Part shown: piece by piece, positions 7,910-26,291 of the stretch | Layout of the letters: each line of letters opens with the position of its first letter | Numbering within the stretch: the stretch's first letter is position 1 | NCBI GenBank assembly: GCA_963749915.1 | Contig: CAVVOP010000005.1 | Coordinates: 160,001-224,000, forward strand | Direction: 5' to 3' | DNA length: 64,000 nucleotides | From: an uncultured cyanobacterium | Lineage (GTDB): Bacteria > Cyanobacteriota > Cyanobacteriia > Cyanobacteriales > Cyanobacteriaceae | Notes under the pieces: generated by a model | Databases searched by the model: none | What the model was told of the DNA's origin: nothing | What the model saw: only the letters and a program-made list of their open reading frames with translations | Translations under genes and position numbers: made by a program

Positions 7910-8012
7910 TAAGTTGATAAAACTGGTGGTCTTTGACTGCCTTAAAGGAAAACCACCAAGAACTAAAACGCCATCGCCTGTTCATGATTGCCCTGACTGG
8001 AGTAGGTAATGC
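7910..8012 (-). pseudogene. C-terminal remnant of a second pyruvate kinase-like gene
   Basis: Minus strand reads HYLLQSGQS*TGDGVLVLGGFPLRQSKTTSFINL, 14/24 identical to the C-terminus of the pyk in this window (RGDSVLILGGLPLRQAGSTSFLDI). Confidence 0.65.
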
Positions 8013-8141
8013 CTCCTGTTAGCGATCATAGGTACAGGCTCAAAATTATAGCCAAAGCCGGAGCGAGATTGGGGATTAGCTTGAATCTGGACAAGTTGGA
8101 TTGCCCGATTTTGACAATAGCCAATAAGACTCGCTATATCT

Positions 8142-9635
8142 TTATTCACCGCTCAAAAGTTTTTGGAGAGTTACTCGAGATCCTTCCCTGTAAAGTGACT
8201 CCATAAATTTTCCTACTTCGTTTTTGAAAACATCTGAGCTTCTCAATCTTGGAGCGAAGAGATCTTCTAAAGCCAGAAGCTTTTCCGGCGATTCCCCACC
8301 TTCTAGCGCAGCCTTTTGTAGAGGTTCCACCATTGGATCGTCGATTTCAAACCCCTGTCCCTTCTCGTCTTTTCCAGTTAAATAGCGAAACCAGGCAGCA
8401 ATACATAAAGCGGCACAGGAGAATGGGCCACCAGTGTCTAAGTGCTTAAGGATGACAGGAAGCACAAATTTAGGGATTTTACTGGAGCCATCGAAACAAA
8501 TGCGAGTAAGTTTATCTTTGATTTTTGGATTGGTAAAACGTTCTAGGAGAGTCTGCTTGTATTCCTCAAGATTAATGCCCGGTACCGGAGCGAGGATCGG
8601 CGTTACCTCCTCATCCATATAGCGAAGGATATAGCGTCGAAACTCTTGATCACTGGCGACTTCATGAATATACTCAAACCCTGCCAGATACCCTAAATAG
8701 CCCATCAAAGAATGACTGGCATTTAAAAGCTGCATTTTCATTAATTCGTAGGGCATGACATCGGGAACAAACTGTACTCCAACATCTCCTAAAATAGGAC
8801 GACCGGCAGCAAAATTATCCTCAATTACCCATTGAATAAAGGGTTCAGCCACGACTGGCCAAGCATCATCTAGGCTAAAATGCTCTCGAAGTTCCTGACG
8901 ATCTGCATCCGTTGTCGCTGGCGTTATGCGATCGACCATACTATTGGGAAAGGCAACATTCTTTTGAATCCATCGATAAAGATTGGCATCGCGTGCTTGA
9001 GCATAACCTTCGATCGCTTTCCGGCTTACCGTTCCATTTTCGGGTAAATTATCACAGGATAGGATAGTTACCTTTGCTCCCCTTCTATCCATTCGCCGTT
9101 TTAACCCCTCAACGATACAACCAATGGCAGTTGAAGGCGTTTCTGGATTGGCTAAATCGTTTTGAATGCTCTCATCAGACAGCAAAAATTCATCGGTGGC
9201 TGAACTGTAGAAATAACCCCCTTCAGTGATAGTAAGGGAGATAATTTTCGTCTGTGACCCTGCCATCTTATCCAGAAGGGCATCCAAATTGTCTGGTGCA
9301 AAGAGATACTCGACCATTGAGCCAACTATATAAGCCTCCATTTGCTTAGCACTCCTTTCAATAACCGTGTATAAAAGATCCTGCGGCACTAAGGCTTCCT
9401 TCATTTGGCGATCCCCCGGCATTAAACCAACGCCACAAATTCCCCATTCAGAAGGACCATATTTTTGAAAAAGTCGGTCCAAATAGACTGCCTGATGGGC
9501 GCGATGAAATCCCCCGACACCAATATGGACAATAGCACTGCCACACCCAGAGCGATCGTATTGCGGTACACTCATTTGAGCAGCTAGGTCATTGAGTGTT
9601 TCATTATTGAGTTTTCTCAGGCTCATTTTTTCCAT
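8142..9635 (-). CDS. Mannitol 2-dehydrogenase family (long-chain polyol/fructuronate reductase) protein
   Basis: IVHIGVGGFHRAHQAVY, ISLTITEGGY, SCDNL, FPNSMVDRITP, EPFIQWVIED, LLNASHS. Confidence 0.9.
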   Translation of the reverse strand: MEKMSLRKLNNETLNDLAAQMSVPQYDRSGCGSAIVHIGVGGFHRAHQAVYLDRLFQKYGPSEWGICGVGLMPGDRQMKEALVPQDLLYTVIERSAKQMEAYIVGSMVEYLFAPDNLDALLDKMAGSQTKIISLTITEGGYFYSSATDEFLLSDESIQNDLANPETPSTAIGCIVEGLKRRMDRRGAKVTILSCDNLPENGTVSRKAIEGYAQARDANLYRWIQKNVAFPNSMVDRITPATTDADRQELREHFSLDDAWPVVAEPFIQWVIEDNFAAGRPILGDVGVQFVPDVMPYELMKMQLLNASHSLMGYLGYLAGFEYIHEVASDQEFRRYILRYMDEEVTPILAPVPGINLEEYKQTLLERFTNPKIKDKLTRICFDGSSKIPKFVLPVILKHLDTGGPFSCAALCIAAWFRYLTGKDEKGQGFEIDDPMVEPLQKAALEGGESPEKLLALEDLFAPRLRSSDVFKNEVGKFMESLYREGSRVTLQKLLSGE

Positions 9636-9677
9636 CCTTAAAATTCAAAATCTAAAATCGATTGGCCCATAGAGGTA

Positions 9678-24300: not shown

Positions 24301-24328
24301 CAGTTTTAGTTTTTCATCAGTTTTAGTT

Positions 24329-25348
24329 TTAGAAAAGTCCTTCTTTCTTGGCCATGAAGAGCATCAGGTCAATTACCCGGTGGGAGTAACCCCATTCGTT
24401 GTCGTACCAAGAAACAACTTTAAAGAAATTGGAATTTAATTCGATTCCGGCTCCAGCATCAAAAATACTCGAATGGGGGTCAGAGATAAAGTCACTGGAG
24501 ACTACCGGTTCATCCGTATAGCCTAAAATACCCTTTAATTCTCCTTGCGCTTCAGCTTTCATCGCTGCGCAGATTTCCTGATAGTTAGTAGCTTTCTCAG
24601 TTTTAAAGGTAAGATCGACCACGGAAACATCCGGAGTTCCGACTCGAAACGCCATCCCGGTTAGTTTTCCCTTCAAGTGGGGTAACACCAGTGCCACTGC
24701 TTTAGCCGCACCCGTGGAAGAGGGAATGATGTTTTGGGAAGCCCCTCGTCCTCCCCGTAAGTCTTTATGACTTGGTCCATCTACCGTTGGTTGGGTTGCT
24801 GTCATGGAGTGAACTGTGGTCATTAAGCCTTCAGTAATCCCGAAAGAGCGATCGAGAACTTTAGCAACCGGTGCCAAGCAGTTTGTAGTACAACTGGCAT
24901 TAGAGACGATCAAATCCTTAGCTGGGTCAAAATCTTGGTGATTAACCCCCACCACAAAAGTGGGAATTTTATCGGGATCTTTACTTGGGGCAGAAATCAT
25001 CACCCGTTTAGCTCCAGCTTTCAGATGGTTTTCTGAACCTTCATAGGTGGTAAACCGTCCCGTTGATTCCACTACATAGTCGGCACCGAGTTTGCCCCAA
25101 GGTAACTGGGAGGGGTCTTTTTCCGCCAGACAGGGAACGAGCTTGCCATTGATTTCAATACCATTATCTTTGGCAATCACTGGTCCCGGATATTTCCCAT
25201 GGGTAGAGTCGTATTTGAATAAATAAGCCAGATTTTCCGAGGGAACGAGGTCATTAATCCCCACAATCTCCACTTCTGGATGATCCATGGCAATGCGAGC
25301 GACTAAACGTCCTATGCGACCAAATCCATTAATACCGATTTTCAGCAT
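24329..25348 (-). CDS. gap: Type I glyceraldehyde-3-phosphate dehydrogenase (glycolytic type)
   Basis: [39 protein letters not shown]. Confidence 0.96.
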
Positions 25349-25484
25349 CTGATTAATTTTCCTTTTTTACGGTAGTTTACAGTTTAATAATATCTAAAGT
25401 TTTAGATAGCTAGGAAATTAATTCAATGCTTAATTTTTGAATTTTGAATTTCTCTCACCAACCAATTGACTTTTTTCGCCAACC

Positions 25485-26291
25485 CTACCTAAAAGCATCT
25501 TTACCCACAAAACGAGCTGTTTTACCTAAGTGTCTTTCAATACGAAGGAGTTGGTTGAATTTAGCAATGCGTTCGCTTCGACAACCAGAACCTGTCTTAA
25601 TTTGACCCGCGCTGGTGGCGACGACTAAATCGGCAATAGTCGTATCTTCGGTTTCACCGGAACGATGGGAAACGAAGCATTTATAATTATTTTTCTGAGC
25701 TAGTTCTACCGTTTCCAAGGTTTCCGTGAGAGTCCCAATCTGGTTCACCTTAATCAGAACCGAATTGGCGATTCCTGCTTCAATTCCTCGGGCGACAATT
25801 TTCGGATTAGTACAGAATAAATCATCCCCCACCAATTCCACTTTGTTCCCAACGGCATCGGTGAGCATTTTCCAGCCATCCCAGTCATTTTCCCCCATGC
25901 CATCTTCTAGGGAGACGATGGGATATTTACTGACCCAATCTGACCACAATTTCACCATTTCTGCGGGGGTTTTGGTTTCCTGGGTGGATTTAAAGAACAG
26001 GTACTTGCCATCTCGCCATAATTCTGAGGTAGCGGGATCTAAACAGATGGAAATATCTTCGCCAGGTTTGTAACCGGCAGCAGATATGGCTTCTACAATC
26101 AGCTCGATGGCTTCTTCATTAGATTTCAAATCGGGAGCAAATCCGCCTTCATCTCCTACACCGGTACTTAATCCTTTCTTTTTCAGCAAGGCTTTGAGAG
26201 TATGAAAAGTTTCCTCTCCCATGCGAATCGCCTCAGCAAAACTAAGGGCATTATGGGGAGCAATCATGAATTCTTGGAAATCAATGGTATT
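25485..26291 (-). pseudogene. eno: Enolase, 5' part removed at the IS1634 junction
   Basis: [49 protein letters not shown]; the N-terminal domain is missing. Confidence 0.92.

Follow-up and report, generated by a model that had tools for sequence, protein, structure and literature searches.

A foreign, half-broken glycolytic gene island in a cyanobacterial genome that has lost its native gap1

The stretch of DNA analyzed here (the window, 64,000 nucleotides) corresponds to C5:160001-224000 of genome G000, an assembly from an uncultured cyanobacterium, and contains an island of 18,382 bp (window 7910..26291) with 16 genes or gene remnants, all on the minus strand, in the order eno-gap-pyk-xfp-ldhA-96-aa gene-gpmA-tal-pgi-glgP-pgk-pgm-phosphatase-ams-mdh-pyk2 (Table 1; aa, amino acids). 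We propose, with a probability of about 0.7, that this island is an imported cyanobacterial dark-fermentation operon with an appended pair of amylosucrase (ams) and mannitol dehydrogenase (mdh) genes, and that it is now being pruned to the genes that the host lacks. Throughout, G000 denotes the host genome and G001 and G003-G006 congeners of it (six in all), while C-numbers refer to contigs of G000 and L-numbers to fetched loci.

A preliminary description of the same stretch had reported about 16 co-oriented genes or remnants in this order, in a segment richer in guanine and cytosine (GC) than the host. Family profiles and PDB matches bear out the order, strand, gene identities and both ends, but the inventory, correct as it was, did not convey that half of the genes are broken. 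The GC content is 0.482 for the island but averages 0.375 over the genome, the island tile of 18.4 kb ranks first of 237 by GC (0.467; tile mean 0.375, standard deviation 0.023), and a scan of third-codon-position GC (GC3) agrees, with 0.38-0.65 for island genes and a mean of 0.31 for open reading frames (ORFs) of the genome. By contrast, counts of HIP1 fail to separate island from host (9 in 18.4 kb vs. 3.4 per 10 kb in the genome). The left end lies 7 bp beyond the stop codon of a host NYN-domain gene, with a step in GC at ~8000, and the right end lies at an IS1634 remnant whose first base is 26292, a boundary supported by the many IS1634 copies in the genome that align from this position. 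The surroundings are housekeeping genes of a 490-kb contig, and the flanking genes are common to the congeners at 78-92% identity; the counterparts of the two genes next to the island are separated by 165-456 kb in G001, G003 and G006, while in G004 and G005 they occupy separate contigs.

An acquired rather than vertical origin, as the preliminary description had assumed, is supported by composition, by absence from the congeners and by trees of island genes against their host paralogs. In quick trees of 7-25 rows, drawn from loci already fetched, the native pgi (C32), glgP (C30) and xfp (C21:684239) join the congeners at 99-100 support, whereas the island copies join other families. The island gap clusters with those of G027, G231 and G212 (98/99), i.e., with cluster copies of other families, and a single clade of the island gap and four congeners was rejected by the approximately unbiased test (p-AU 7e-7, with the longest-branch paralogue excluded). 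No congener matched ldhA at E 1e-60 (0/6), and the island type of pyk, at E 1e-200, is found in 0/16 genomes of the host's family and in 31/300 genomes of its order. The three observations on which the preliminary description would have given up its account, namely island genes as sole, vertically inherited copies, a composition without anomaly, and the lack of such a cluster in any other genome, were not made.

A native gene has been lost from this genome. The gap1 of G001 is flanked by two blocks whose G000 counterparts are C8:249785-247970 and 247669-246364, and the interval, ~1,250 bp in G001, is ~300 bp in G000 with no gap match left there. All six congeners have three gap genes including a gap1; G000 also has three full-length gap genes, and, because its native gap1 has been deleted, that of the island is its only full-length gap1. 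A further gap copy, in a second glycolytic cluster on C21, is broken, whereas the island gap is whole. Likewise, all that is left of the native tal is a stretch of 16 codons (C21:283681-283728) next to its usual neighbor, and the only full tal in G000 belongs to a third cluster, on C22; this copy is 73-75% identical to those of the congeners, compared with a median of 86% over 77 G001 orthologues. The island gap has replaced the native gap1, and the C22 copy the native tal. A second native glgP was probably displaced as well, the second glgP of G001 having no G000 match above 70%. The assembly is 100% complete by markers, though in 34 contigs. In xenologous gene displacement, the arrival of a foreign orthologue is followed by loss of the native gene; the present case shares this course, but two core carbon genes are affected (gap1 and tal), probably together with the second glgP, and the replacements came in two separate imports of several genes each. 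It shows core carbon genes being replaced by imports while the empty native site can still be read. Neither this replacement nor the two additional clusters figured in the preliminary description.

Half of the island genes retain their full length (gap, pyk, ldhA, the 96-aa gene, glgP, the phosphatase gene, ams and mdh), and the other eight are broken in the assembly sequence (eno, xfp, gpmA, tal, pgi, pgk, pgm and pyk2). Each of the seven broken glycolytic genes other than pyk2 has a full-length counterpart elsewhere in the genome, which for pgm is of a different type; pgi has three. Because the broken genes keep a low ratio of nonsynonymous to synonymous substitution rates (dN/dS, 0.05-0.12 against relatives), and close relatives exist for gpmA (full length, 89-94% identity) and eno (a 99.6% identical protein that reaches 52 residues further upstream than the IS cut), the decay is likely recent. 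For xfp, no full-length protein more than 87% identical was found among 8000 candidates, which is weak evidence.

The preliminary description had seen in the island a mobile, bifid-shunt-like fermentation module with a mannitol branch. A version in which this module still functions, self-contained and mobile, with the mannitol branch integral and the frame breaks being assembly errors, would agree with the gene content and shared orientation and with the low dN/dS of the broken genes, which suggests that they were functional until a short time ago. There may also be an allele with less damage: of the words sampled from the island, one DNA sequencing run, possibly the source sample, holds 0.69 and three more hold 0.20-0.44 (shares <0.2 left out), and no RNA run is listed among the holders. 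However, the two deletions and the IS truncation go beyond single-base error and therefore cannot be explained as such, and three frame changes in the island stand against none in 82 host genes (96,933 bp) compared with congener proteins, one of which has a stop, in a check that took only matches of ≥75% identity and ≥80% cover and thus favors intact genes. Further, no integrase, relaxase, tRNA site or terminal repeats were found in the island region, where the only mobile trace is the host-type IS1634 remnant, and no mdh was found at E 1e-20 in five genomes with related genes (a search without positive control), nor in seven related stretches. We consider a functioning module of this kind very improbable, and present mobility is rejected.

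Membership in the bifid shunt, the fructose-6-phosphate phosphoketolase pathway of Bifidobacterium in which an L-lactate dehydrogenase is a feature, is rejected as well. The island shares with it phosphoketolase and transaldolase with lower glycolysis and a lactate dehydrogenase (LDH), and a unit without pfk or fba; indeed, as previously described, no pfk, fba or zwf match was found in the island (tblastn with all host ORFs of ≥80 aa as queries, E 1e-6; the host pfk copies were individually located, those of fba and zwf were not). But xfp is in three pieces, tal is truncated, the LDH is of the D-type, and the host has two full matches to phosphofructokinase (PFK) and an intact native xfp. No transketolase or acetate kinase ORF occurs in the island, and ackA lies elsewhere, at C21:144004. 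The nearest PDB structure to the island Xfp is 8io8 (E 3e-168), while the xylulose 5-phosphate/fructose 6-phosphate phosphoketolases 3ai7 and 3ahc, presumably bifidobacterial, match less well (E 7e-128 and 2e-126). What stands of the earlier interpretation is a gene set leading from glycogen to D-lactate; what does not is a functioning bifid-shunt-like pathway.

We view the island, under the reading proposed here, as a supplier of single enzymes, all of whose activities, as well as their use in the dark or under anoxia, are inferred. The original operon would have converted glycogen to glucose 6-phosphate and fructose 6-phosphate, passed them through phosphoketolase and lower glycolysis, and reduced pyruvate to D-lactate. 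Pruning would then have struck mainly those genes of which the genome has another, undamaged copy (eno, xfp, gpmA, tal, pgi, pgk and pgm) and kept genes that the genus lacks or the host has lost (gap1, ldhA, mdh and the 96-aa gene), so that the island might contribute Gap1, LdhA, Pyk and GlgP to host glycolysis rather than form a self-contained shunt. GlgP would mobilize glycogen and host enzymes would take it on to GAP, with genes elsewhere (pgm, pgi, pfk, native xfp, pgk, gpmA and eno) completing the route; Gap1 would make NADH, Pyk would make ATP and LdhA would reoxidize the NADH, yielding ATP and D-lactate in the dark. The type of cluster is known in outline, and the island copy is most likely not a working pathway.

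Two further clusters of the same kind occur in the genome, on C21 and C22 (Table 1). The island copies are 60-81% identical to those of the C21 and C22 clusters with synonymous sites near or at saturation, and gene order and GC3 differ among the three clusters; given the identity, the saturation and the different orders, these appear to be separate imports, and the genome looks like it holds three independently acquired glycolytic clusters. Alternatively, the three clusters could have arisen by duplication within the genome, or be ancestral and lost in all congeners, as their shared gene sets and a well-supported group uniting island and C22 glgP with G102 and G256 might suggest. Besides the differing orders, GC3 and saturated synonymous sites, this explanation has to face separate tree positions (in trees of eno, ldh, pyk and glgP, the copies from C5 fail to pair with those from C21) and absence from the 6 congeners and 16 family members; we regard it as the least probable of those considered, and recent duplication is rejected as a source of the clusters.

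Clusters of the same genes are also found in other cyanobacteria, as the preliminary description had expected. Blocks of four to eight of them occupy seven stretches of six other genomes (G102, G231 twice, G212, G029, G033 and G025), which were picked since they already showed clustering, many other pyk loci having been read without a cluster. A glgX-xfp-fba-glgP-ppk1 block is present on the conjugative plasmid pC052_A of Nostoc sp. C052 (NZ_CP040273.1). These clusters share with the island overlapping, co-oriented gene sets, but theirs are full length, their order is shuffled in each case, and the island-type ams, mdh and phosphatase occur in none of the seven stretches or the plasmid block. 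The clusters of G102 and G231 also carry a lactate permease. G256 has the nearest pyk-ldh pair, yet no larger cluster within 60 kb. Plasmid searches with ldh, pyk, glgP and pgi revealed, among the matches listed, neither a plasmid with the cluster of the island nor a record named for strain ATCC 51142; ldhA occurs on Picosynechococcus plasmids without glycolytic neighbors in the two regions read, and glgP on Acaryochloris pREB4 adjoins hydrogenase genes.

A glucose/pyruvate metabolism cluster was reportedly described by Welsh et al. in 2008 on the linear chromosome of Cyanothece (Crocosphaera) ATCC 51142. Compared with the description of that cluster, from a unicellular diazotroph, rather than gene by gene, the island shares clustered extra copies of glgP, xfp, pgi, gpm, eno, pyk and ldh and a nitrogen-fixing host, but it is embedded among housekeeping genes on a contig of 490 kb, is half broken, is one of three, and has the ams-mdh pair. 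Their lactate dehydrogenases may also differ in type, if K00016 denotes, as we take it to do, the L-type enzyme. This identifier is given for the ldh of 51142 in one paper (PMC11550448), whereas the island LDH is D-type; another states fermentative lactate genes in 51142, 7424 and 7822 (PMC3187577). A description of the island cluster or of the ams-mdh pair was not found in the literature searched, a coverage that leaves out most subscription papers.

The amylosucrase/mannitol arm that the preliminary description had pointed out is real, although it is not a conserved branch. Because the pair is absent from the other glycolytic clusters examined and occurs elsewhere without one, it appears to be an appended unit. 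Both genes are intact, and their dN/dS (ams 0.13-0.15; mdh 0.16-0.23, against L099 and L100) indicates purifying selection. The tandem recurs in 3/80 metagenome loci (L098 with an mdh fragment, L099 and L100; ams 85-86% and mdh 91-93% protein identity), which show no glycolytic genes, fructokinase or transporter on contigs as short as 2.6-4.9 kb. The island type of ams occurs in 1/300 other genomes of the order at E 1e-200, is present in G571 (81%) without mdh, and is only 40% identical to the host's own ams. It has the amylosucrase catalytic motifs, with sucrose hydrolases as the next-best PDB match (2e-151); Ams is probably an amylosucrase, for which glucan synthesis rather than hydrolysis is predicted. 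Mdh is nearer in PDB to mannitol 2-dehydrogenase than to fructuronate reductase or mannitol-1-phosphate dehydrogenase, all of its NCBIfam matches being below cut-off. Only two proteins among 8000 candidates are more than 57% identical to it, and a genome scan with mdh returned eight Bacteroidota loci at 44-46%.

With respect to function, Ams would probably transfer the glucosyl units of sucrose to an alpha-glucan, and Mdh would probably reduce the freed fructose to mannitol, which makes the pair a possible second NADH sink. Reduction of fructose is suggested because ams is paired with mdh in place of a kinase, and we lean modestly towards this direction in the cell. To our knowledge, mannitol synthesis in cyanobacteria is known only from engineered strains, and a literature search aimed at native synthesis found no matching paper; the ams-mdh tandem is a candidate for such a native pathway. 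It is also possible, though on balance somewhat unlikely, that the island is an imported operon under pruning as proposed, but that the pair is catabolic or osmotic and apart from fermentation, with Mdh oxidizing imported mannitol to fructose or the pair clearing sucrose after a salt down-shock. Relatives of mdh (34-52% identity) in 17/400 cyanobacterial genomes are without a glycolytic cluster in the seven loci read, and those at ~50% adjoin apparent sugar kinases and ATP-binding cassette transporters, a catabolic setting as judged from N-termini. Further, PMC9971976 places the amylosucrase of Synechococcus PCC 7002, as a route of sucrose breakdown, in a salt-induced operon with fructokinase (sps-spp-fructokinase-ams), and the host itself has such a locus on C22 (spp-like gene, kinase, ams). 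The island ams forms a separate clade. However, both the island and L098-L100 pair it directly with mdh instead of fructokinase, with no fructokinase or transporter in view.

A link of such clusters to nitrogen fixation can also be inferred. The nifD of G000 scores above cut-off and is part of a nifDKEN-like block of four genes on C21, whereas 0/6 congeners match nifD, which makes G000 the only nitrogenase carrier among the seven genomes of the genus. Among 300 genomes of the order, 21/31 carriers of the island-type pyk have nifD compared with 90/269 non-carriers (odds ratio 4.2), figures that come from one sample with an arbitrary E cut-off and related, non-independent genomes. Fermentation was proposed as a night-time energy source for N2 fixation in ATCC 51142 and said to need validation (PMC11550448). 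Such clusters are not required for nif, because in G010 and G017, which belong to the host's family and carry nifD, glgP, xfp or gap occurred singly in the loci read. That the one nitrogen fixer among seven congeners has three independent imports makes it testable what night-time fixation needs besides nif. A broader scenario would have the lineage that gained nif also acquire its carbon metabolism for the night, in three or more imports from different cyanobacteria, replacing its own gap1 and tal, with ams-mdh making it a natural mannitol producer that splits sucrose into storage glucan and fructose and uses the fructose as an electron sink in dark anoxia; we consider this unlikely in its entirety.

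Several observations weigh against an imported operon pruned to the genes that the host lacks, in addition to the catabolic setting of the mdh relatives. Breakage tracks redundancy only loosely, since glgP, pyk, ldhA and ams are intact despite other copies and may simply not be broken yet. Among 20 sequences compared, the island pyk is alone in differing at five columns that are invariant in the others (range 0-6). If the operon once began with eno, its promoter may have been lost to the IS. No single donor emerged, since the nearest neighbors vary with the gene: xfp and ldh fall near G029 (where they are adjacent too), pyk is closest to G256, and eno and pgm are closest to G102. The donor would be unsampled or the block a mosaic. 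As for nitrogen fixation, 10/31 carriers of the pyk have no nifD match, and in family f7 nifD is present in 17/17 genomes and the island-type pyk in 0/17. Some of these points would suit a wholly silent island that decays neutrally, its intact genes having survived by chance and the host managing without gap1 via gap2 or the oxidative pentose phosphate route: 8/16 genes are broken, the 5' end is cut by the IS, private changes occur in glgP as well as pyk, and promoter scans against shuffled sequence gave no clear excess (12 vs. 16.0 ± 4.0 and 13 vs. 8.4 ± 3.1), just as terminator and repeat scans of the island gave no signal clearly beyond chance. But gap1 is kept by all six congeners, the island gap is whole while that on C21 is broken, and catalytic motifs are present in gap, ldh, mdh, ams and glgP, and we therefore find neutral decay of the whole island improbable.

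Table 1. Genes and remnants of the island and its bounding insertion sequence (window positions), and the two further clusters of the host genome (contig positions)
Feature	Position	Strand	Description
pyk2 scrap	7910..8056	-	C-terminal piece of a second pyruvate kinase, 51 codons with in-frame stop; blastx 39% over 51 aa, E 5e-5
mdh	8142..9635	-	Long-chain mannitol 2-dehydrogenase family, full length, 497 aa; PF01232 and PF08125; best PDB 7rk4, E 2e-150
ams	9678..11684	-	GH13 of the amylosucrase family; full length, 668 aa if started at first TTG; alignments with relatives begin at 11666; best PDB 3ucq, E 5e-203
Histidine-phosphatase-family gene	11693..12382	-	Full length, PF00300; close relative in 1/190 other genomes
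pgm remnant	12404..13270	-	C-terminal half, TIGR01132 type; residues 266-553 of 553, model positions 270-543 of 546; 83% to G102 protein
Probable pgk remnant	13271..13305 (ends approximate)	-	~12 N-terminal codons against first 12 residues of host pgk; weak match, local score 29; at deletion joint with pgm
glgP	13366..15900	-	Glycogen phosphorylase, full length; TIGR02093 above cut-off; one of five in genome
pgi, frameshifted	15900..17478	-	470-aa ORF; frame change near 16100, after residue 463 of 525; last ~60 codons in another frame
tal remnant	17538..18164	-	C-terminal half with EF-hand tail; residues 189-396 of 397
gpmA remnant	18148..18693	-	Residues 1-183 of 232; deletion joins gpmA to tal
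96-aa gene	18798..19088	-	No Pfam family; relatives in 10/400 other genomes
ldhA	19152..20177	-	Fermentative D-lactate dehydrogenase, full length; D-2-hydroxyacid family; best PDB 5z20, E 5e-116
xfp, three pieces	20276..22707	-	XFP_N, XFP and XFP_C each in an ORF of its own; frame breaks near 21540 and 20925
pyk	22879..24300	-	Pyruvate kinase, full length, 473 aa; TIGR01064 above cut-off
gap (gap1 type)	24329..25348	-	Full length; only full-length gap1 in genome
eno remnant	25485..26291	-	Without first 158 codons; begins at residue 159 of 433, beside IS1634
IS1634 remnant	26292..27655	+	Internal deletion; NF033559; cuts eno, bounds island
Second cluster	C21:44147-59931		eno, EF-hand gene, pgi, ldh, glgP, gap remnant, pyk, transketolase-like gene, ppk, glgX
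Third cluster	C22:145054-151834		eno remnant, gpmA, pgi, tal, glgP

The 96-aa protein is a possible regulator of such clusters. Relatives of its family often adjoin xfp, glgP, ackA, ppk or pyk, and its members in G254, G259 and G311, three small genomes, have decayed and contain stop codons; an Atlas search with the protein gave no match at 0.9, the best, at 0.81, being a lead at most. Between pyk and xfp, a reading frame of ~10 codons (window ~22730-22810) may start another deleted gene, and a blastx comparison of it with host ORFs was without match. IS1634 is abundant in the genome, with 22 host ORFs matching the start of the remnant at 84-96%, several contigs beginning or ending in it, and further IS1634 sequence at window 34409-36070 and on many other contigs. 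At window 1196-3514 lies a gene for a 772-aa protein with a bacterial Ig/cadherin-like domain.

Near the nif block on C21, a bifunctional acetaldehyde/alcohol dehydrogenase gene, adhE, lies directly adjacent and above cut-off (L246:8762-11428), and xfp-tal in G023 and pyk in G564 are likewise beside apparent nif genes. In the clusters of C21 and G102, the gene after pyk encodes a divergent transketolase-like protein that reaches none of the NCBIfam cut-offs (L013:4617-6617; L079:2714-4627), and a second copy of this gene lies near the C22 cluster at C22:157713-159611. About 16 kb from the C21 cluster, a GC-rich V-type ATP synthase operon (A, B, D, E and I; A, B and D above cut-off) accompanies a P-type ATPase gene (C21:~19300-27900; L296:3332-11837), and its subunit A was not found in five relatives in a search without positive control. 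In a survey of 35 genes with GC3 ≥0.48, 12 of them without match, high-GC3 genes of other GC-rich segments (L295, L300, L302, L305 and L290) fit acid or anoxia handling; they encode a proton-efflux P-type ATPase and a branching-enzyme-like protein near a further pyruvate kinase (C20), an L-lactate transporter of the major facilitator superfamily (C21:~101900), an aspartate 4-decarboxylase beside an antiporter-like gene (C8), a catalase-peroxidase and an HdeD-like protein.

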